From IMG/VR virus record IMGVR_UViG_3300035337_000237: DNA of 20,000 nucleotides, one strand, 5' to 3'. The notes beneath the pieces were generated by a model. That model was not told the origin of the DNA and did no database searches. It saw only the letters and a list, made by a program, of their open reading frames with translations. The position numbers and the translations under genes are program-made. How positions within the stretch are numbered: position 1 is the first letter of the stretch; each line of letters opens with the position of its first letter. Positions 2,067-12,583 of the stretch are shown here, in pieces. This DNA is from an uncultured virus (IMG/VR IMGVR_UViG_3300035337_000237). Taxonomy: Duplodnaviria > Heunggongvirae > Uroviricota > Caudoviricetes.

Positions 2067-2600
2067 ATGGCTGATACTTCTTCTGTCGGAGGCAAAACCA
2101 AGGACCGGGAAATAACCGACAATTTCAATCCTTTTAAACGCGGCAACCTGTCTGAGCGTGAATTCAATAAAGTGAAAAAATCAGTAGACAACCGGCTTCC
2201 TGATATTCCTGATGGAGAAGATGTTGCCGGACTTCTTGACGATGATTCTTTCCAGATGCTGAAGGACATGAGGGCGGCTTACAAATCAGTTAATGGCCGG
2301 AAACGCCTTAAAGAAATGATTTCCAGCGATAAAGACTTTTCCTTCATGGTGAAAGAGTTGTTAAGAGTGGAATCGGCTTTGCTGGCCGCCAAGATGAAAA
2401 GGGACGGGGAAGGCGGAATTGGAAATTCTGCGGCTGTGTTTGTTATCATTAAAGGGTTGGAAGATGAGAAACGGGTGGAGAAGGCAATTAAACTTGCCGA
2501 CGATGGAGTGGATTTAGAGCAGGTGATGAATGCGCTTAATCCTAATGCTGAAAAGAGGGTGGAGGCAGAGGAAAAAGTGGAGGGACCAGAGACATGGTGA
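2067..2600 (+). CDS. Hypothetical protein, possible terminase small subunit (177 aa)
   Basis: Helical charged protein at the head of the operon upstream of TerL with a purine-rich SD. The function call is positional only. Confidence 0.5.
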   Translation: MADTSSVGGKTKDREITDNFNPFKRGNLSEREFNKVKKSVDNRLPDIPDGEDVAGLLDDDSFQMLKDMRAAYKSVNGRKRLKEMISSDKDFSFMVKELLRVESALLAAKMKRDGEGGIGNSAAVFVIIKGLEDEKRVEKAIKLADDGVDLEQVMNALNPNAEKRVEAEEKVEGPETW

Positions 2601-3301
2601 CAAAGGTAGATGGCAGTATTATAGAATTCAAATACAAAGACATTGATTTTAAATTTACCAATACCCCGACCGCTCCTGCGTTAATCCATGAAATTTTCAG
2701 TGATAATTATAAAATATTAGAAAGAGGATTGCAGTTTCAGCCGGATGACATTATCCTGGATATTGGAGCCAATGAGGGAATGTTTTCTATTATGATGGCT
2801 AAATTGTTTCCATCCACCAGAATTATTGCTCTTGAGCCGGTTCCGAAAACATTCTTTACCATGATCAGGAATATAGGGTTGAATGGAGTTACCAACATTC
2901 ACCCGTACAACCTAGGAGTGGGCGGGAAAAGTAATAAGTCTGAAATTATCTATTGCGATAAAACTTATTCCGGTGGTTCGTCTATGGTGGTCACTCCCGA
3001 TTTTAAGTCCATGGATATAGTCAATGTTGAAGTCGTGGCGTTTGATGACATATTTGATTCCTGTAAATTCCTTAAATTCCCTTCTATTAATCGTGTTAAA
3101 CTTCTCAAAATGGACATTGAAGGCGCTGAGTACGAAACTCTTTATAATTCCACCTGTCTTACTCAAGTTGACAACATGGTTGCCGAGTTCCATATCAATG
3201 ATAGACTTACTGGGATGGGTTATGATATAAATGAACTGGCTGCGTGGGTGGGAAGCCGGTGTAATTTGGTTTATTACGAAAAAATGAAGATGGCGGAGTG
3301 A
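2594..3301 (+). CDS. FkbM-family SAM-dependent methyltransferase (235 aa)
   Basis: Motif I ILDIGANEG, IIALEP, and the FkbM hallmark LLKMDIEGAEYETL...EFH. Confidence 0.9.
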   Translation: MVTKVDGSIIEFKYKDIDFKFTNTPTAPALIHEIFSDNYKILERGLQFQPDDIILDIGANEGMFSIMMAKLFPSTRIIALEPVPKTFFTMIRNIGLNGVTNIHPYNLGVGGKSNKSEIIYCDKTYSGGSSMVVTPDFKSMDIVNVEVVAFDDIFDSCKFLKFPSINRVKLLKMDIEGAEYETLYNSTCLTQVDNMVAEFHINDRLTGMGYDINELAAWVGSRCNLVYYEKMKMAE

Positions 3302-3312
3302 GGTAATTAGTC

Positions 3313-6300
3313 ATGACTGAAAATCAAAAAGCATATCAGATTCTTTTTGATTACGAGGATATTCCGACATTAAAACGTTTTGCTCTGGATAATTCACGGA
3401 TGAGACTTTGTTTAGGTCCATTTGGATGCCTGTCTTCCGATACGGAATTTCTAACTCCTGCCGGTTGGAAGAAAATATGTGATTATACAGAGACGGATAT
3501 ATTAGCTGAGTTTGATTTATCTACATCAAGAATATTTTTTCATAAACCATCTGATTATATAAAATTACCTTGCGATTCTTTCCTTCATTTAAAAAATAGA
3601 TACGGCATTGACCAGTTATTAAGTGATGAACATATTGTTCTTTTTAATACAGCTTTTAAACCAGAGGAGTGGAGAACAATCCCGGCTGGAGAACTTGCCG
3701 GGAAACATAATTCGCTTAATGATGGATGGTCGGGAAGAATACCAACAATATTTAAAGCTCCGGAAACTAATGGTATTGACTTAACCGGTAATGAAATTCG
3801 TTTAATGGTTGCAGTATCAGCCGATGGTCATTTCTCCAAAAAAAGTAATACAAATAGATGTCATATATGCGTTAGGAAAGAACGTAAAAAAATAAGATTA
3901 AGAATGTTATTAACGGAATGTGGAATTGATTGGAATGAACGAAATTATGAGGCGCGTCCGACTGAAACAACTTTTGATTTTGACGCTCCGGAAAGAAATA
4001 AATTACTGTGGAAGTATTTTAATGCTGATGAATCTCAATTAGCAATTATAGCTGACGAGTTTGTACATTGGGATGGATGTCTTGATTGTTATGGCGGAAG
4101 AATATATGCTTCGACAATAAAAGAGAATGCGGATTTTATTCAGTATGTTTTGACTACCACTGGAGTGCGCGCTACCATTGCGAAAATAAATTACAATAAT
4201 GATAAATGGAAAACCGGGTATAGAGTTTATGCAAATACAGGAACAAATTTTTTATCGATGAGAAACGCTCCAAAAATAGAAAGAGTTCCTTCTCCTGATG
4301 GTTTTAAATATTGTTTTAAAACATCAACTGGTTTTTTTGTTGCCAGAAGAAATGGTAAAATATTTATAACTGGAAATTCGGCGAAAAGCAGCGCATGCGT
4401 AATGGAGGTTATCCGCCGTGCGCTGGCGCAAACACCTTCTCCTGATGGAATACGCAGGAGCAGATGGGCTGTGGTGAGGAACACCTATTCGATGCTGAAA
4501 GATACAACTATAAAAACTTTTCATGATTGGTTTCCTCCTAAATTATTTGGAGAATACAGGGTTACCGACCATACATATATTATAACAAAATTTCCAGGAG
4601 TCCATCTGGAAATTATGTTTCGCGCTCTTGACCGACCGGATCAAGTTTCAAATTTATTGTCCCTCGAAGTAACTGGCGCTTGGTTTAATGAAGCACGCGA
4701 GATACCTATTGCTATCATTGATGCTATGGATGGAAGAATTGGGAGGTATCCTAGTGGGAGAGATGGCGGGGCAAGTTGGTATGGTATTATTATGGACTCG
4801 AATCCTCCATCAGATGACTCAGTATTGTATAAACGTTTTGAAGTCATCCGACCGGAGGGCTGGAAAATATTTAAACAACCATCAGGGTTATCAGTCCATG
4901 CGGAAAATACAAAACACCTCCCGAAAAACTATTATATCAATCTTGCCAAAGGCAAAGATGAAATGTATAAACGTATCTATATTGACGGGCAGTATGGGTA
5001 CCTTGTCAGCGGGAAACCGGTATTCCAGTCATTTAGAGACAATATCCATGTCGCGCCCCATCAACTTGAGCCGCAAAAGGGATTAGATGTTTTGGTAGGG
5101 ATGGATTTTGCCCTTCAGCCAGCTTGTATTATTGGTCAAATTACAACCCTTGGTCAACTTCAAATATTAGACGAGGTGGTGTCTGAGGGTATGGGATTGC
5201 GTCAATTCTGTGATAATAAACTTCTTCCACTTCTTCGTCTTAAATACTTTGGTATGAACGTTATGGGATTTGGAGACCCCTCCGGGGTTGCCCGTGCGCC
5301 GACAGATGAGTCCACCTGTTTTGAAGTTCTTCAGGGGCCGGAAGTGGGTCTGCGCAATATTGTTCCGGCTCCAACCAATGCTATTCTTCCCCGGGTGGCT
5401 GCTGTGGAAAATTTCCTGAATAAAATGTATGCGGGAGAACCTTCTTTTATCCTTTCTCCCAACTGCCATTATCTCCGTAAAGCCATGAACGGCGGGTATC
5501 ATTATGAAAAGGATCCGAGAAGTATGGGCGAGGAATACAAAATCATGCCAGTGAAGAACTTCTCGAGTCATTGTTGTTTTAGTGGAAAAACCATGATTCT
5601 TACACCAACCGGTGAAAAAAGAATTGATGAAATCAGAGCGGGGGATTTTGTTGTTACACCCTTTGGAAACCGGAAAGTAATTGCAGCAGGATTGACACAC
5701 AAAAAAACTAAAGTTATTGAGATAACTTTTTCAGATGAAAGGAAAATTGAATGCACTGAAGATCATGAATTTATAAAATCAAACAAAAGTATTGCAAAGA
5801 GTAATGCTTTGCGATATAGTGATGTCCTGCAAGATTATAATTCATGGAGGACATTACAATGGAGCATCCAGAGTTTATTGAGTTTGAAGAAAAGAAATAC
5901 CGGCTTTCGTCAGGTAATTACTACAGGGTCGAAAATTGGAGAAAGGCAACATGCAATCTTCACAGAGCTGTTTGGGAAAGTCATAATAAATGTAAAGTTC
6001 CTGAAGGATATGATATCCACCATATTGATGGAAATGTATTTAATAATGATATTTCCAATCTTGAGGCCATCCATGGTTCCGAACATTCCAGATTCCACCT
6101 GTTTGAAAGAATTAAAAACGGAACCTGGGATTTTAAAAAAAGTCTCGAATTGGCGCGGGAAGCAGCGAAATCCTGGCATGGGTCTCCTGAAGGAATCAAG
6201 TGGCATAGTAAACATGGAAAAGAAACATGGGTTGACAGAAAAATTTATATCACATGTTGTCTGTATTGCGGGAAAAATATTGAAGCTTCATTCCCGTCAA

Positions 6301-6666
6301 GAAAGAAATTCTGTAATGCAAACTGCCAAAATAGATATAGATACTACAGTGGAAAAGACAACGTTCAAAGAACGTGTGTTATTTGTGGTAAAAACTTTAC
6401 AGCGAATAAATATTCTAAAATCAAAACCTGTGCCAAGGATTGTGCAAATATCTCAACTTCCAGAACTAAAAGATGTATATAATATTACCGTAGACATTGA
6501 TCATGTTTTTTACGCGAATGGTATCTTGTCTTGTAATTGCGATGCTCTTGAATATCTTTGCATGTTTATTGCCGAGCGTGATATTCATGATAAACGCTGG
6601 AAAGATTTAAGTTCAAAAGTAAATTTAACAAACTATAAACCAGTGAATTCAATCGGGGGATACTAA
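3313..6666 (+). CDS. terL: Terminase large subunit precursor with two inteins (1117 aa; spliced product about 479 aa)
   Basis: Splicing restores Walker A GPFG|SAKS. Also RSRWAVVRNTY, Walker B-like GAWFNEARE, nuclease motifs VGMDFALQPA, GDPSG and SHC|CDALEYL. Lies directly upstream of the portal. Confidence 0.93.
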   Translation: MTENQKAYQILFDYEDIPTLKRFALDNSRMRLCLGPFGCLSSDTEFLTPAGWKKICDYTETDILAEFDLSTSRIFFHKPSDYIKLPCDSFLHLKNRYGIDQLLSDEHIVLFNTAFKPEEWRTIPAGELAGKHNSLNDGWSGRIPTIFKAPETNGIDLTGNEIRLMVAVSADGHFSKKSNTNRCHICVRKERKKIRLRMLLTECGIDWNERNYEARPTETTFDFDAPERNKLLWKYFNADESQLAIIADEFVHWDGCLDCYGGRIYASTIKENADFIQYVLTTTGVRATIAKINYNNDKWKTGYRVYANTGTNFLSMRNAPKIERVPSPDGFKYCFKTSTGFFVARRNGKIFITGNSAKSSACVMEVIRRALAQTPSPDGIRRSRWAVVRNTYSMLKDTTIKTFHDWFPPKLFGEYRVTDHTYIITKFPGVHLEIMFRALDRPDQVSNLLSLEVTGAWFNEAREIPIAIIDAMDGRIGRYPSGRDGGASWYGIIMDSNPPSDDSVLYKRFEVIRPEGWKIFKQPSGLSVHAENTKHLPKNYYINLAKGKDEMYKRIYIDGQYGYLVSGKPVFQSFRDNIHVAPHQLEPQKGLDVLVGMDFALQPACIIGQITTLGQLQILDEVVSEGMGLRQFCDNKLLPLLRLKYFGMNVMGFGDPSGVARAPTDESTCFEVLQGPEVGLRNIVPAPTNAILPRVAAVENFLNKMYAGEPSFILSPNCHYLRKAMNGGYHYEKDPRSMGEEYKIMPVKNFSSHCCFSGKTMILTPTGEKRIDEIRAGDFVVTPFGNRKVIAAGLTHKKTKVIEITFSDERKIECTEDHEFIKSNKSIAKSNALRYSDVLQDYNSWRTLQWSIQSLLSLKKRNTGFRQVITTGSKIGERQHAIFTELFGKVIINVKFLKDMISTILMEMYLIMIFPILRPSMVPNIPDSTCLKELKTEPGILKKVSNWRGKQRNPGMGLLKESSGIVNMEKKHGLTEKFISHVVCIAGKILKLHSRQERNSVMQTAKIDIDTTVEKTTFKERVLFVVKTLQRINILKSKPVPRIVQISQLPELKDVYNITVDIDHVFYANGILSCNCDALEYLCMFIAERDIHDKRWKDLSSKVNLTNYKPVNSIGGY
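3427..4377 (+). mobile_element. Intein 1 (317 aa) with LAGLIDADG/DOD endonuclease, inserted in TerL Walker A
   Basis: Block A CLSSDTEFLT, block B LSDEHIV, DOD motifs LMVAVSADGHF and FVHWDG, block F/G KYCFKTSTGFFVARRNGKIFITGN followed by +1 Ser. Confidence 0.92.
5792..5820 (+). promoter_or_regulatory. Candidate internal sigma70 promoter for the nested HNH gene
   Basis: TTGCAA-N17-TATAGT, ending 38 nt upstream of ATG 5859; SD GGAGG at 5846-5850. Confidence 0.45.
5859..6482 (+). CDS. HNH endonuclease with C-terminal Cys zinc-finger repeats, nested out of frame inside intein 2 (207 aa; 212 aa from ATG 5844)
   Basis: LHRAVWE...IHHIDGNVFNNDISNLEAIHGSEHSRFH is an HNH motif. CxxC pairs CLYC/CNANC and CVIC/CAKDC. 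SD GGAGG lies 8 nt before ATG 5859. Confidence 0.9.
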   Translation: MEHPEFIEFEEKKYRLSSGNYYRVENWRKATCNLHRAVWESHNKCKVPEGYDIHHIDGNVFNNDISNLEAIHGSEHSRFHLFERIKNGTWDFKKSLELAREAAKSWHGSPEGIKWHSKHGKETWVDRKIYITCCLYCGKNIEASFPSRKKFCNANCQNRYRYYSGKDNVQRTCVICGKNFTANKYSKIKTCAKDCANISTSRTKRCI

Positions 6667-6702
6667 AATCAGCGCGAGGGAAATAAAACTCAGGGGAAAA
6701 TT

Positions 6703-9060
6703 ATGGATGAAATAAAATCAGAGTTTCAGGAATCAAAACGTAATTCAGAAGTAATGGTGTCATTCGGCGCGCGCCTTTATAACCAGTTCACCGCCAATGA
6801 AGGGTTCCGGTACGCCAAGGAGCAACAGTGGCTGGAAGACCTTCGCGCATACAAAGGATTGTATGACCCGGATGTAAAAATATCAGCGGATGCTTCTAAG
6901 GTCTATCCGAAGTTGACCCGTTCCAAGGTCAATATCGTTCTTTCCCGGCTCCATGAAATGCTGTTCCCGGAGAATGACAAGAATTTTGAAATCAAGCCGA
7001 CTCCGGAACCCAAAATATTTCCGGAAATAGTAGAGGAAATAATTCAAGGTTTACTTCAACAGAAAATGATGGAAATACAAATAGCGATGCAACAGAATCA
7101 GCCCGGTTCTATGCCCGGTTCTATGCCTGGTTCTATGCTTGGCCAACAACCGGAAATCCAGCCTCTGTCTATCGAGGATGTCCGGATGGCCATAAAAGCT
7201 TTTTCCGATGCCACCTGCGAATCTATGTCCAAAGTAATCGATGACCAACTTCTTGAAATGGATTACCCTGAAGAAACTAAAAAAGTATTAAAATCAGGAT
7301 TATTGTATGGAACCGGTATTATGAAAGGTCCTATGATTAATAAACATACCCGGCATAAATGGGAACCAAATCCTGACGGTGATTATCAGGAAGCCAGAGA
7401 AACAGAGGATGTTCCTTATTTTGAAGCCATTCGTATCTGGGACTGGTATCCTGATATGACGGTTACTGAAATGTCCATGATAGAGGGAAGTTTTGAACGT
7501 CATATCATGTCCAAACATGATATTCGTGAACTCATTGACCGTGAAGATTATTACGGTGACATTATAACAAAATTCCTTACCGAACATCCAAATGGCAACT
7601 ACACTGCAAAGAATTGGGAAATTCAACTTCAAACCATAGAAATGGAAGCCGGAGCCAAAAGTACTGCTACAACAACCGCTTATACTGCAACCGGCGAAAC
7701 CAGCAGGGCGACCAACCGTCAAATTGGCAAAAAATATGAAGTTCTTGAATTTTGGGGATATATTGACGGTTCTGATCTTGAGGCATGTGGAGTCAATATA
7801 TCAGACCCGACTCTGGAATATGCGGCAAATGTCTGGATAATAGGGAAAACAATTATCAAGGCTACTCTTTTTGAAGGCGCTCTCAATCGCTATAAACTGT
7901 TCTATTACGAAAAGGATGAAACAAGTTTGTACGGTGAAGGTCTTGCTCGTGTCATGCGTCATAGCCAGATTGCCGTTGCGTCTGCGGCCCGTATGGTTCT
8001 TGATAATGCCGCTGTAATCAGTGGACCTCAAGTAGAAATTAATTGGTCACTACTCACTCCCGGACAAGATATGTCATCCTTCCATTCTCGTAAAATATGG
8101 TATCGTGAAGGCCGTGGAATTGAAGCCCAATACCCGGCTATCCGCAATCTGAGTTTTGAATCCCACATTGATGAACTTATTGGAGTTTCCAAATTCTTCA
8201 TGGAATTTGCCGATATCGAAACCACACTCCCTACCTGGCTGGCCGGTCAAATGGTCAATAATGAAACTGCGCAGGCTGCTTCCGGCAGAATGGCAACCAT
8301 AACCATAAGTATTAAAGACATTGTAAAGAACTTCGACATGTTTACAGAACATATTATCCAGGATCTCTACGCCTGGAACATGGAATTTAATCCCAGACCT
8401 GATATAAAAGGTGATTATAGTGTAAAAGCCCGTGGGGTGTCTTCCCTTATTATGAAAGAAATCCGTATGCAGGCCATAAATCAGTTCATGTCTACCCTTA
8501 CCCCTGAAGATTTGGTCTACATTCCCCGCCGTGAACTTCTGAACGAACGTCTGAAAGTCCATGATATCAATATCAATCTTAAAACAGAGGAAGAGGCCGA
8601 TAAGATCCGCGAACAACAGTCCAATTCTGAGATGGCCGTATTGGAAAAAGAAATGTTGAAGTCTGAAATAGCCAAAAACAAGGCTCAGGCCATGAGTAAT
8701 TTAACTAAGGCAAAACAAAAAAATGTAGAGGCCAACAAAGAGGCGGAAACTCCACCCGAAATTTCTGAAAATGAGTCACCGGAAATGAAAGCGGCCAGAT
8801 TAGAACAGGAACAGGCCAAAACTGATGATCAGAGAACTAAAACCGTCTTGATGGTTGACAAACACCAAGCAGAAAAGGCAAAATCGGATCATGAAATGGG
8901 TCTGTCTACCGCCCAAACAGCCATTGAGGAACGCCGGAAGGAAGAAAAACACCAGACTGAGTTGGAGATTAAGAAAGAGACAGCAAGACATGGTATGAAA
9001 ATGAAGGAAAAGGCGGTTAATAAACCGAAAACCGGACTAGTTAAAGGGGGAGGGAAGTAA
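6703..9060 (+). CDS. Portal protein (785 aa) with a long coiled-coil C-terminus
   Basis: Position after TerL and size; motifs GLLYGTGIMKGP, WDWYPD, EVLEFWG, SLYGEGLAR..RHSQ, RMVLDN; helical tail as in P22-like podovirus portals. Confidence 0.85.
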   Translation: MDEIKSEFQESKRNSEVMVSFGARLYNQFTANEGFRYAKEQQWLEDLRAYKGLYDPDVKISADASKVYPKLTRSKVNIVLSRLHEMLFPENDKNFEIKPTPEPKIFPEIVEEIIQGLLQQKMMEIQIAMQQNQPGSMPGSMPGSMLGQQPEIQPLSIEDVRMAIKAFSDATCESMSKVIDDQLLEMDYPEETKKVLKSGLLYGTGIMKGPMINKHTRHKWEPNPDGDYQEARETEDVPYFEAIRIWDWYPDMTVTEMSMIEGSFERHIMSKHDIRELIDREDYYGDIITKFLTEHPNGNYTAKNWEIQLQTIEMEAGAKSTATTTAYTATGETSRATNRQIGKKYEVLEFWGYIDGSDLEACGVNISDPTLEYAANVWIIGKTIIKATLFEGALNRYKLFYYEKDETSLYGEGLARVMRHSQIAVASAARMVLDNAAVISGPQVEINWSLLTPGQDMSSFHSRKIWYREGRGIEAQYPAIRNLSFESHIDELIGVSKFFMEFADIETTLPTWLAGQMVNNETAQAASGRMATITISIKDIVKNFDMFTEHIIQDLYAWNMEFNPRPDIKGDYSVKARGVSSLIMKEIRMQAINQFMSTLTPEDLVYIPRRELLNERLKVHDININLKTEEEADKIREQQSNSEMAVLEKEMLKSEIAKNKAQAMSNLTKAKQKNVEANKEAETPPEISENESPEMKAARLEQEQAKTDDQRTKTVLMVDKHQAEKAKSDHEMGLSTAQTAIEERRKEEKHQTELEIKKETARHGMKMKEKAVNKPKTGLVKGGGK
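7102..7137 (+). repeat. 12-nt tandem repeat x3 in the portal gene (PGSM x3)
   Basis: CCCGGTTCTATG CCCGGTTCTATG CCTGGTTCTATG. Confidence 0.9.
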
Positions 9061-10756: not shown

Positions 10757-11704
10757 GGACGATAGTTTGGCCGAATAAAAAGTCCTTAAAGTCGGGGAAC
10801 ATCCTATAATAGGACAATCCCGAGCCAATCCGTAATGGAAGGTGTAACGACTATGAACGACGATGAATTTAGAGGAGCAGTAATAGGAATGATTTTAGGA
10901 GATGGAAGTTTATCGCATTGTGCTACAGGGAATACTAACTCGCATATAGATTATGCTCATTGCATGAAACAAAAAGAGTATGCTCTATGGAAGGCTGATA
11001 TACTTAAAAATCTCACCACCGTTACGATCAAAGATGGAATTAGTAAATGCAAAGGGAAAGAATATTCAAAAGTGAGAGTTTTAACAAAGGCTCATCCTGT
11101 TTACACTCATTTATGGAAACGATTTTATCATCAAGGAAGAAAAACGATAGATTCTTTTTTGATGGAACAACTCACTCCTTTGGGTTTGGCAATCTGGTAT
11201 CAAGACGATGGACATCTTAAAAATCATGAAGATTATTTAACTCCGATGTTGGAAACAAATTGTTTTAATGTGGCAGAGCATTTAATAATGACAAAAGTTC
11301 TTGCCGATAAATTCCATCTTGAATTTCGCTCGAATCATCTTAATGCAAAATATTTAATGTTGAGACTTCGCCGAAAAGACAGGGAAAAATTCTTTGATAT
11401 TATACGAGAATTTATTCATCCTACAATGGAATATAAAATTAAGGATGATGGAAAAACATTAAGAGAATTTGGCGATCCGATGGAATGCAAATGCGAAATA
11501 TGCGGAGAGAAAATTATTAAAGCATTTACCTTGCGTAATGATGATCGCCGTGGAAGATTTTGTCGCAAATGTTATAATTCTCATCGTTCAATAATTGGGA
11601 CGACTCGCAATCAATATAGTGAGTCAAAAGATAGTCTGGACCCAGTAGTAATACCGGGAGTTTGTTAGAAATAATAAACCAAGGGAAACCTTGTAACAAT
11701 GATG
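10757..11704 (+). mobile_element. Group I self-splicing intron (948 nt) in the major capsid gene
   Basis: Exon ends in U and intron ends in G. P1 AUUCGGU/GCCGAAU with a U-G pair at the splice site; P10 UAGUUUG/CAAGCUA; P/Q-like GUCGGGGAAC/AAUCCCGAGC; P7 GACUA (10849-53)/UAGUC (11632-36); P8 GACUCGC/GUGAGUC; GNRA-capped P9 hairpins. Confidence 0.9.
10853..11668 (+). CDS. Intron-encoded two-motif LAGLIDADG homing endonuclease with a C-terminal Cys4 module (alternative start 10835)
   Basis: AVIGMILGDGSL and PLGLAIWYQDDG motifs; CEIC...CRKC; SD-like GAAGGTG before ATG 10853. Confidence 0.88.
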   Translation: MNDDEFRGAVIGMILGDGSLSHCATGNTNSHIDYAHCMKQKEYALWKADILKNLTTVTIKDGISKCKGKEYSKVRVLTKAHPVYTHLWKRFYHQGRKTIDSFLMEQLTPLGLAIWYQDDGHLKNHEDYLTPMLETNCFNVAEHLIMTKVLADKFHLEFRSNHLNAKYLMLRLRRKDREKFFDIIREFIHPTMEYKIKDDGKTLREFGDPMECKCEICGEKIIKAFTLRNDDRRGRFCRKCYNSHRSIIGTTRNQYSESKDSLDPVVIPGVC

Positions 11705-12583
11705 CAAGCTAAAAGTTTACCTGCAAACAAAACGCAGTCTATGAAGTTCAGGCGTTATAACAGTCTGGGACTTCGCACAACGGCATTGACTGAAGGCGTA
11801 ACTCCTGTGGCTGATAAAATGACCGCAACAGATATAACGGCAACCTTAAGTCAGTACGGCGGCTTAATCGGTATTACTGATGTTGTTCAGGATACCCATG
11901 AAGACCCGGTTATGCAGGAAGGAATTGCCGTTATCGGTGAACAGGCGGCCAAGACAGTTGAAACATTACGTTATAATGTGCTCAAGGCGTGCAGCAACGT
12001 TTTCTATGCGAATTCAGTTGCCTCCCGTGATTTAGTCGCAGCGGCCATTTCCCGTGCCGACCAGCGTCGGATTGTCCGCGCACTGGAACGTCAGGAAGCC
12101 GGATTTGTAACCAATATTGTCAAATCCACTCCGTCGTTCAATACCGAATCCATCCTCCCGGCTTATGCCGGTGTAACCCATGTCGACCTTACATCCGATA
12201 TACGCGGACTTACGGGATTCACTTCTGTAGCGGATTACGGAAAAGTCTCTCCATGGGAAACAGAAATTGGTTCCTGTGAAGATGTCCGCTATCTGAAATC
12301 CACAATCTTTACTCCCTATAATGGCGTGGGCGCGACAACTTCAACCATGATAGCGACCGGCGGTAACTGTGATGTTTACCCGGTAATGTATTTCGGCAAA
12401 GACGCTTACGGGTTTATCGCTCTCAAAGGCAAGTATGCGATTACTCCCATGGTGGTCAACCCGAATCCGAGTATTGCTGATCCATTAGCGCAAAGAGGTT
12501 CAATTTCCTGGAAAACCATGCAAACAACGGTTATTTTAAATGACGCCTGGATGGCGGTTGCCGAGGTTGCATGTACGAATTAA
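11705..12583 (+). CDS. Major capsid protein exon 2 (spliced protein 327 aa)
   Basis: MKFRRY, LTEGVTP, LSQYG, EIGSCEDVRY, DVYP, DPLAQRGSISWK and ILNDAWM are motifs typical of N4-gp56-like capsid proteins. Confidence 0.9.
   Translation, partial: QAKSLPANKTQSMKFRRYNSLGLRTTALTEGVTPVADKMTATDITATLSQYGGLIGITDVVQDTHEDPVMQEGIAVIGEQAAKTVETLRYNVLKACSNVFYANSVASRDLVAAAISRADQRRIVRALERQEAGFVTNIVKSTPSFNTESILPAYAGVTHVDLTSDIRGLTGFTSVADYGKVSPWETEIGSCEDVRYLKSTIFTPYNGVGATTSTMIATGGNCDVYPVMYFGKDAYGFIALKGKYAITPMVVNPNPSIADPLAQRGSISWKTMQTTVILNDAWMAVAEVACTN

Follow-up and report, generated by a model that had tools for sequence, protein, structure and literature searches.

What kind of element is an intein whose endonuclease slot is occupied by a nuclease gene written in a different reading frame? 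The question is raised by the gene for the terminase large subunit (terL) in a stretch of 20,000 nucleotides (the window) from an uncultured virus of the Caudoviricetes; the window is a portion of a 43-kb IMG/VR virus record (IMGVR_UViG_3300035337_000237). The second of two inteins encoded in this gene (intein 2, 5575-6537, + strand) overlaps a complete HNH nuclease gene on the same strand (5859-6482), and an earlier note on this DNA had proposed that the two form a composite mobile element. Our analysis leads to a similar reading, to which we assign a probability of roughly 0.8: a contiguous terL intein with a separately translated, out-of-frame HNH gene in its endonuclease slot, the whole of which would behave as a homing element.

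The intein and the gene nested in it

The terL precursor is encoded by an open reading frame (ORF) of 1117 amino acids (aa; 3313-6666, + strand) that was taken from the ORF list and matches the PHROG families phrog_2 ("terminase large subunit", E 9.9e-26) and phrog_30251 (E 1.3e-17) and, weakly, the Pfam family Terminase_3 (E 0.035). Intein 2 takes up 963 nt, or 321 aa, of this frame, as judged from Pfam, aligned residues and its fold match. It begins with the Cys codon at 5575 (the border lies between ..SSHC and CFSGKT..) and ends with the Asn codon at 6535-6537, which is followed by a Cys codon at 6538-6540 (..ILSCN before the border, CDALEY.. after it). The Pfam family Intein_splicing gives a single hit that is split by the insert (residues 36-321, profile positions 39-155, E 2.4e-9, over the cut-off), and Hint_2 covers residues 1-36. 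The features of a class 1 intein are present, namely the Cys1 nucleophile, the TxxH of block B, blocks F and G, the C-terminal Asn and the +1 Cys, and the splicing residues C1, T61, H64 and N321 are invariant across 53 aligned relatives. Our own hidden Markov models (HMMs) recover the N-terminal splicing domain with blocks A and B (5575-5865, + strand, E 2.3e-37) and the C-terminal splicing domain with blocks F and G (6445-6537, + strand; the match runs over 6445-6540, E 1.5e-16). Downstream of the intein, at 6538-6666 on the + strand, lies the C-extein of TerL, 42 aa and a stop codon, which was delimited with the help of intein-free alleles and has the +1 Cys as its first residue. The borders of the intein and the four intact splicing blocks given in the earlier note therefore stand.

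Between the two splicing domains the intein frame runs through 5866-6444 (+ strand), a stop-free stretch that is the +1 reading of the HNH gene. These approximately 190 residues match no Pfam family at E ≤ 0.01, be it a nuclease or another conserved domain. In the AlphaFold2 (AF2) model of the intein-frame protein, pLDDT (predicted local distance difference test) scores are 95-98 in the splicing domains (95-98 over residues 1-90, 97-98 in the C-terminal domain) and 41-61 over approximately residues 105-280, that is, over the linker. The model has hits to 26 intein or Hint chains at E ≤ 0.001, led by the gp41-1 mini-intein (6qaz; E 5.1e-7, TM score 0.85 by target length), which aligns across the insert. 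Because this match spans the insert, the element in frame 0 is modelled as a mini-intein with a long disordered insertion in the usual slot of the endonuclease domain. gp41-1 is presumably a split intein from the study of Dassa and coworkers, which we discuss below. Split inteins have their halves on separate ORFs, but in the window the intein frame is uninterrupted; because it is open through the nuclease gene, we consider this intein contiguous and probably cis-splicing. Given the intact splicing residues and the need for TerL, splicing would be expected to restore the terminase.

The HNH gene lies in frame +2 relative to terL and encodes 207 aa followed by a TAA. Its frame opens after a TAA at 5838-5840 and is open from 5841 to 6482. 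There are ATG codons at 5844 and 5859; the former has no Shine-Dalgarno (SD) motif, and the latter has an SD-like GGAGGA 7 nt upstream (5846-5851, + strand, from reading the sequence). The TAA of the gene (6480-6482) spans the Tyr and Asn codons of intein block F (VYN), and the C-terminal splicing domain shares 38 nt with the 3' end of the gene. Profile searches of both frames, which the earlier note had called for, place the intein families in frame 0 and the HNH nuclease in the other frame: the latter matches HNH_3 in Pfam (E 9e-10; score 38.5 bits, cut-off 24.8) and phrog_15471, annotated as "HNH endonuclease" (E 5.9e-33).

The structure predicted by AF2 for the nuclease has a mean pLDDT of 94.5. 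Its catalytic half is best matched by the homing endonuclease I-HmuI (1u3e), both by profile (E 0.018) and by fold (Foldseek probability 1.00). In VIA-align the model is superposed on I-HmuI with Z 7.7 (rmsd 3.2 over 77 residues, 23% identity), followed by I-PpoI with Z 5.2 (model residues 2-90), values that are merely moderate by the tool's own note, which sets structural Z below 8 in that class. The two C-terminal modules, the Cys zinc fingers recognized in the earlier note, resemble the FCS and YacG zinc fingers, which are zinc ribbons. Ten residues of the protein are invariant in 53 sequences (H35, H54, H55, N63, N67, H76, C134, C137, C152 and C156); they include the catalytic His and Asn residues as well as the first Cys4 module. 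The gene product is thus predicted to be a nuclease composed of an I-HmuI-like His-Me finger and two FCS/YacG-like zinc ribbons.

A sequencing or assembly artefact, in which two compensating indels hide an ordinary in-frame HNH intein, would be the simplest explanation for this layout; however, we found no point that supports it. Five IMG/VR contigs from different data sets keep the frames at 98-100% identity, and the interval 5575-6537 is free of indels in contigs from three independent DNA runs belonging to three studies. Furthermore, the nuclease is out of frame in 71 of 99 related loci and in 13 of 28 genome loci, and in frame in none of them (see below). To the extent that assemblies can tell, sequencing error as the source of the layout is excluded, and the chance that the arrangement is an artefact is negligible.

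Relatives and the constraint on the two frames

A blastn search with positions 5400-6700 returned no match among phage records, and relatives of the element are seen at the protein level only. Using the HNH protein as query, tblastn matched 24 of 50,697 phage records. In four annotated phages (Clostridium phage phiCDHM19, Tetrasphaera phage TJE1, Acinetobacter phage Highwayman and Rhodobacteraceae phage LS06-2018-MD07) the match lies within the annotated terL coding sequence (CDS), at the same +2 offset and with the same intein blocks on both sides. Scans of IMG/VR yielded 10 loci with the single protein and, with an alignment of 11 sequences, 283 relatives, the best 80 of which were retained; these 90 loci, the window and eight loci from phage records make up the 99 loci that we classified, six of which are near-copies of the window. 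The classification relied on our HMMs for the N- and C-terminal splicing domains (eight seeds) and for the HNH protein, and doubtful loci were read by eye; the C-terminal domain was missed by our HMMs in L044, L064 and L095, which were reclassified by reading.

A contiguous intein with the HNH gene at +2 is found at 69 of the 99 loci, a proportion to be read with the caveat that a sample of the 80 best matches to a nested query leans towards nested forms. Two further loci (L065 and L079) have a contiguous intein with the nuclease at +1; at 12 the intein halves are on separate ORFs with the HNH gene between them, at 13 no Hint domain was detected, though some of these may contain diverged inteins, and three are cut by contig ends. 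L089, with a free-standing HNH gene, is of uncertain class. At no locus is the nuclease in frame with the intein. A scan of prokaryotic genomes, with one genome per species, gave 80 loci, 28 of which have full-length kin (the other 52 are weaker HNH_3 kin and were left unclassified). These 28 comprise 13 contiguous inteins with the gene at +2, six split ones, four loci without a Hint domain and five partial loci, again with none in frame. The genome bins carry disparate labels (Nostoc, Nitrospiraceae, Planctomycetales, Ktedonobacterales, Saccharibacteria and Thermoplasmatales), although such labels are not proof of host. Comparison of these loci shows an arrangement that is old and widespread, with the predicted nuclease always out of frame.

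The split layout is well illustrated by Lactobacillus phage CL2 (L007, NC_028835.1, 1670-2774), in which a natural split intein fractures terL and its two halves flank the HNH gene. The annotated terL CDS of CL2 ends with the N-intein half, the annotated "HNH endonuclease" comes next, and an unannotated ORF (2487-2774 of L007) encodes the C-intein half and the C-extein. The same type of layout was found at 11 other loci and at six genome loci, among them isolates under the labels Peptococcus simiae and Limosilactobacillus gastricus.

In the phylogeny of the HNH proteins (93 rows, unrooted, without the six near-copies of the window), contiguous +2 carriers fill most of the tree on long branches, whereas the split and free forms gather for the most part in a single starred clade of 10 rows, the rest being scattered. 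The backbone is poorly supported, with 15 of 90 branches starred, and the count of at least 15 changes of architecture is accordingly soft; the well-supported branches force only three to four changes per class. Carriers of the same architecture are separated by branches of approximately one change per site.

Across the HNH gene the intein frame contains no stop codon in any of the 62 non-redundant contiguous loci, compared to a mean of 18.8 stops in the third frame. Permuting synonymous codons within these HNH genes introduces a mean of 2.5 stops into the intein frame, and the median fraction of permutations that remain open is 0.03. At the 25 split or no-Hint loci the corresponding frame has 0-12 stops, with at least one in 23 of the 25; the uncertain locus L089 has none. 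In the window itself, re-encoding the HNH protein with the codon usage of nine other window genes gives a mean of 4.4 intein-frame stops, and only 0.42% of 5000 trials stay open; the +1 frame of those nine genes themselves contains 6.5-14.4 stops per 207 codons. The window HNH gene avoids ATA, GTA and GTG codons. The intein frame is open beyond what is expected by chance.

The two frames differ sharply in what is conserved. All 1891 pairs of HNH-frame proteins from the 62 relatives are alike at E < 1e-5, with a median of 100 bits, whereas only 200 of the 1891 intein-frame pairs translated from the same DNA are (median 19.6 bits), and this leftover likeness falls under the most conserved HNH motif. 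The test on homologues proposed in the earlier note thus has the outcome it anticipated, both frames being open with conservation in the HNH frame only, and its description of the intein-frame middle as a tolerated linker agrees with this pattern, with the low pLDDT and with the missing family match. The comparison shows that selection acts on the HNH frame at the protein level and that all it demands of the intein frame is freedom from stops, through avoidance of xTA and xTG codons. The +2 offset probably prevails because the other frame of an HNH gene is harder to keep open, with approximately 19 stops compared to approximately 2.5.

The two sister loci with the nuclease at +1 relative to the intein (L079:3113-3991 and L065:3155-4150) provide a separate observation. 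The intein frame of L079 has no stops; synonymous permutation leads to a mean of 10.9, and none of 1000 permutations is open. The +1 overlap is much costlier, yet it is maintained. In X14 and X16, from two metagenomes, contigs match the flanks of the HNH gene around a stretch (5926-6354) of unchanged length whose core is strongly diverged. L103 and L104 are also mosaic, with 63-78% identity in the HNH core and 90-95% at both ends. Such mosaic cores suggest recombination inside the nuclease gene.

One could assume that the HNH gene is a decaying, unexpressed relic and that both frames are open merely because the insertion is recent. Expression of the gene is so far a prediction, many relatives have no SD-like motif of at least 5 nt (see below), and some loci do decay. 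Clostridium phage phi CD119 (L008, 1543-2595) carries the same element as its close relative phiCDHM19 (L001) with three intein-frame stops and one HNH-frame stop, and the annotation of its terL is fragmented; these stops could be due to decay or to old sequencing errors. However, HNH sequences at approximately 37% identity keep all catalytic and zinc-binding residues, every one of the 1891 pairs is significantly alike, and carriers of the same architecture are a long way apart in the tree. Stops in the HNH frame of homologues were named in the earlier note as a reason to abandon the idea; in the 67 contiguous relatives examined, the ORF and its start codon are intact without exception. We therefore regard decay as quite unlikely.

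Expression and spread of the element

How would a ribosome reach the nested gene? An ATG, GTG or TTG codon in the HNH frame directly follows the N-terminal splicing domain, where the earlier note had placed the start in the window, in all 67 contiguous loci examined, and the frame is open from start to stop in all of them. In the 62 non-redundant loci the start is ATG in 55, and the upstream stop in the HNH frame lies a median of four codons before it. An SD-like motif of at least 5 nt precedes the HNH start at 28 of the 62 loci, compared to 7.2% of 7603 other ATG triplets at the same loci, a figure that is somewhat inflated because the best of up to three candidate starts was chosen. In the split relatives the HNH gene is obviously independent, beginning at a start codon of its own that follows a stop. 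Because of these start codons, the enrichment in SD motifs, the upstream stops and the separate gene in split relatives, internal initiation is the best-supported route by which the HNH protein would be made.

The alternative route, programmed ribosomal frameshifting or transcriptional slippage, would yield the nuclease as a fusion of N-extein, N-intein and HNH protein. The two frames do share one mRNA, and in 21 of the 62 relatives not even a 4-nt SD-like motif is present. Nevertheless, an HNH-frame stop that lies a median of only four codons upstream leaves hardly any room to shift frames and keep the conserved N-terminus, and no slippery heptamer was seen when 5841-5861 was read by eye. A start codon at 67 of 67 loci, SD motifs enriched approximately sixfold and the clearly separate gene in split relatives likewise speak for initiation at the gene itself, and we consider a frameshifted product highly improbable.

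On the reading that we prefer, ribosomes translating terL in frame 0 would read through the HNH gene and produce a linker of approximately 190 unstructured residues between the splicing domains; splicing would then remove the whole intein and restore TerL. A second set of ribosomes would start at the internal SD motif and ATG (5846-5851 and 5859) and produce the 207-aa nuclease. This nuclease would nick or cut the intein-free terL of co-infecting relatives near the insertion site (..SSH(C/I) before and (C/S)DA.. after the junction), and repair would copy intein and nuclease together, which constitutes homing.

The distribution of the element among terL genes bears on this scenario. For the best 80 of 255 N-extein relatives in IMG/VR, the element is carried by only eight, and three of these are the same contigs as near-copies of the window. 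L105, L106 and L108, with 87-88% N-extein identity, and four more loci that were read are uninterrupted across the site, whereas some of the 80 loci end before the insertion site or were left unread. The empty sites join ..SSHI to SDALEYLC.. in L106 and to CDATEYLC.. in L108. In two metagenomes that contain the window sequence, low-depth contigs join the exteins directly (depth 4.95 compared to approximately 126, and 13.8 compared to approximately 453); the matching side measures 27 letters and was flagged as weak. This sporadic distribution fits a mobile homing element, in which cleavage and copying would account for the spread. In addition, the match of L144-L146, L155 and L166 to the N-extein of the window stops at query residue 288, which may reflect a further insertion at a third site in terL.

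A different role for the nested gene has to be considered because of its location. HNH proteins encoded beside the terminase genes of cos phages act in HK97-type packaging, and the gene in the window might be a non-selfish accessory nuclease of the packaging machinery that acts together with the terminase, the intein being merely where the gene is located. In three of three annotated relatives that have no intein (PAE1, CL2 and Poludnitsa) the HNH gene lies between terL and the portal gene, and zinc-ribbon HNH nicking enzymes adjoin terminase genes according to PMC3592412. However, in 72 of the 80 close relatives the 2.5 kb around terL contain no hit to the HNH family, save for one weak hit in L158, and the TerL family therefore works without this HNH protein. 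The best match in sequence and in fold is a homing endonuclease, I-HmuI, and the gene is always located in the endonuclease slot of an intein or between the halves of a split intein. We consider a packaging function unlikely, and homing remains the reading that we prefer.

Several observations nevertheless weigh against this reading. The penultimate residue of intein 2 is Cys and not the His of a textbook intein, and its relatives have S, H or G at this position. An SD-like motif of at least 5 nt is absent in 34 of the 62 relatives. No RNA run containing the window stretch was found among the sequencing runs; four runs marked "RNA?" contain small shares of it, and X17, with five short contigs, is "probably DNA" by its label. 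When the window HNH gene is considered alone, 25% of its synonymous permutations leave the intein frame open; this is a weak test because the codon usage of the gene has already been purged, and the openness of the intein frame is significant because of the codon-usage null and the relatives, not because of this permutation. The 14 variable sites among the near-identical relatives L011-L013 are mixed: eight variants are silent only in the HNH frame, five only in the intein frame, and two alter both (at 5942, and the G>T at 5946; position 5946 is counted twice, as its G>A is silent in the intein frame only), and the HNH-silent pattern is clean only downstream of 5970 (three of three sites). As a test of which frame is constrained, this polymorphism was rejected, the sites being too few and too mixed. 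Finally, L012 is the one diverged terL found with a near-identical intein 2; its nucleotide identity to the window rises from 64-86% to 93-100% at approximately 5220, which is approximately 350 nt upstream of the intein 2 insertion site, and stays high through the portal gene. We rejected this jump as a co-conversion or homing footprint: because the high identity extends into the portal gene, position 5220 or thereabouts is a sharp recombination breakpoint and not the end of an intein-limited tract.

Neighbouring genes and published systems

The late genes in the window form one block on the + strand. A methyltransferase gene (2594-3301, + strand) precedes terL, a portal-like gene (6703-9060, + strand) follows it, and the block also includes a free-standing LAGLIDADG nuclease gene (10835-11668, + strand; phrog_11023, E 6e-25), the major head protein gene (11699-12583, + strand) and tail fibre genes. 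The LAGLIDADG gene directly precedes the major head protein gene, and the match of the major head protein is without the first 56 profile positions. An Rfam scan of the entire window found no family at threshold, and thus nothing that points to a group I intron next to the LAGLIDADG gene. Intein 1, which is separate from our main finding, lies in the Walker A region of terL (3427-4377, + strand; the intein runs from C to ..TGN between ..GPFG and SAKSS..) and was delimited by comparison with the intein-free allele of L012. It matches phrog_32482 (E 8.6e-48, residues 25-360) and, weakly and under the cut-off, LAGLIDADG_3 in Pfam (E 3.9e-4). The terL of L012 (L012:1095-3503, 802 aa) is without intein 1, its site reading ..GPFSSGKSS.., yet it shares intein 2 with the window at approximately 99% identity. 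Because L012 has intein 2 but not intein 1, the two inteins of terL were inherited independently.

The earlier note knew of no good description of such an architecture. This does not hold: it is already in print, in Gorbalenya 1998 as cited and in work from the Gogarten lab from 2025-2026. Gosselin et al. 2025 (bioRxiv) describe non-canonical inteins whose homing endonuclease (HEN) is out of frame on the same strand, with the terminase large subunit among the hosts, and also report anti-sense LAGLIDADG and VSR-like HENs. As in the window, their nuclease is in "reading frame 3 relative to the intein" on the same strand, occupies the endonuclease slot and leaves the intein frame open; as in the window, the in-frame middle is structureless while the product of the other frame folds as a nuclease (the corresponding pLDDT scores here are 41-61 and 94.5). 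Their nuclease, however, is endonuclease VII-like (IPR004211, matching 1E7D over residues 1-67), whereas ours is HNH_3/I-HmuI-like with two zinc ribbons, a difference that is drawn from the descriptions only. For the HNH protein of the window, Pfam gives no match to Endonuclease_7 at E ≤ 0.1 and lists only HNH_3 and zinc-finger families. The cases in that preprint are from actinophages only and are called rare, unlike the phages of Clostridium, Acinetobacter, Tetrasphaera and Rhodobacteraceae and the many metagenomic lineages found here; a tblastn search with the N-terminal splicing domain matched 37 phage records, none of which is a phage named in that preprint. Gosselin et al. propose that free-standing HENs invaded inteins.

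In the cyanobacterial dnaX intein described by Phillips, DeSimone and Gogarten (bioRxiv 10.64898/2026.09.14.751524), an out-of-frame LAGLIDADG homing endonuclease (HE) was first proposed by Gorbalenya 1998, as cited in that preprint. This case is called "anti-sense" in the 2025 preprint and "+2ORF" in the 2026 preprint. It resembles the window in that the intein is contiguous and overlaps an ORF for a functional-looking HE, in that purifying selection constrains the HE frame but not the intein-frame middle, and in its sporadic distribution, in which intein-free alleles coexist in populations. It is unlike the window in its cellular host and its LAGLIDADG nuclease. In the fractured genes of Dassa et al. 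2009 (PMC2677866) a free-standing homing endonuclease gene is located between the halves of a split intein. The order of N-intein, nuclease gene and C-intein is the same as here, and exactly this arrangement occurs in terL with the HNH family of the window at the 12 and six split loci counted above; however, the nucleases in that study are GIY-YIG and Vsr-like, fracturing by HNH genes with split inteins being merely predicted there, and in the window no stop interrupts the intein frame across the nuclease gene.

Arsenault et al. 2025 (PMC11855218) report a hidden out-of-frame HNH gene in an insertion in a phage methylase, the ShiLan domain. There, too, the insertion is kept open in the frame of the host protein. 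That insertion has no splicing domains and is presumably retained in the protein, whereas the window has them; and for ShiLan, where a ribosome binding site was not found, a leaderless GTG start is proposed, compared to GGAGGA and ATG here. I-HmuI, the best structural match, is an HNH homing (nicking) endonuclease encoded in a group I intron, unlike the nuclease within the intein of the window, and it has a DNA-binding tail that is unlike the two FCS/YacG-like zinc ribbons. In canonical inteins that contain the HNH domain in frame, the same three modules occur in the same order; however, their nuclease is part of the intein polypeptide, which is the case at none of the 99 and none of the 28 loci. 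A literature search turned up no report of a contiguous terL intein with an HNH_3/I-HmuI-like gene overprinted on it, or of a distribution of such breadth, although the supplements of the preprints may list cases.

Because the architecture itself was published in 2025-2026, our finding opens no new field. What is new is the different nuclease family, its far broader distribution, in which the frame offset is constant and no member is in frame, the quantitative evidence that selection on the intein frame is for stop avoidance only, and the finding that contiguous, split and free forms exist side by side within this family. The 2025 preprint considers that out-of-frame nesting might be a rare and transient stage through which an in-frame intein nuclease arises. 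Our data lead us to suggest tentatively, and at slightly less than even odds, that in the HNH_3 lineage it is instead the predominant, ancient and stable state, which selection at the codon level maintains in the phages of many groups of bacteria and perhaps of archaea, with repeated interconversion with split terL inteins and free copies. If this is true, the terminase genes of uncultured phages are a large untapped pool of cis-splicing inteins that tolerate unstructured inserts of approximately 190 aa, together with matched natural split inteins, and such inteins are candidate tools for protein engineering where large inserts have to be tolerated.

The family also has consequences for annotation and for the study of overlapping genes. 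Gene callers annotate the contiguous loci as one long "terminase" and miss the nuclease, and in the split form the small, exon-like C-terminal ORF is missed, as in the record of phage CL2. The two frames constitute a clean natural pair of overlapping sequences, one of them selected for its protein sequence and the other for the absence of stops only. Within the single gene terL, contiguous inteins are linked to natural split inteins, and one nuclease family occurs as a free gene, between the halves of a split intein and overprinted on a contiguous intein. These three forms support the view of intein origins in which the splicing element came first and the nuclease invaded later.

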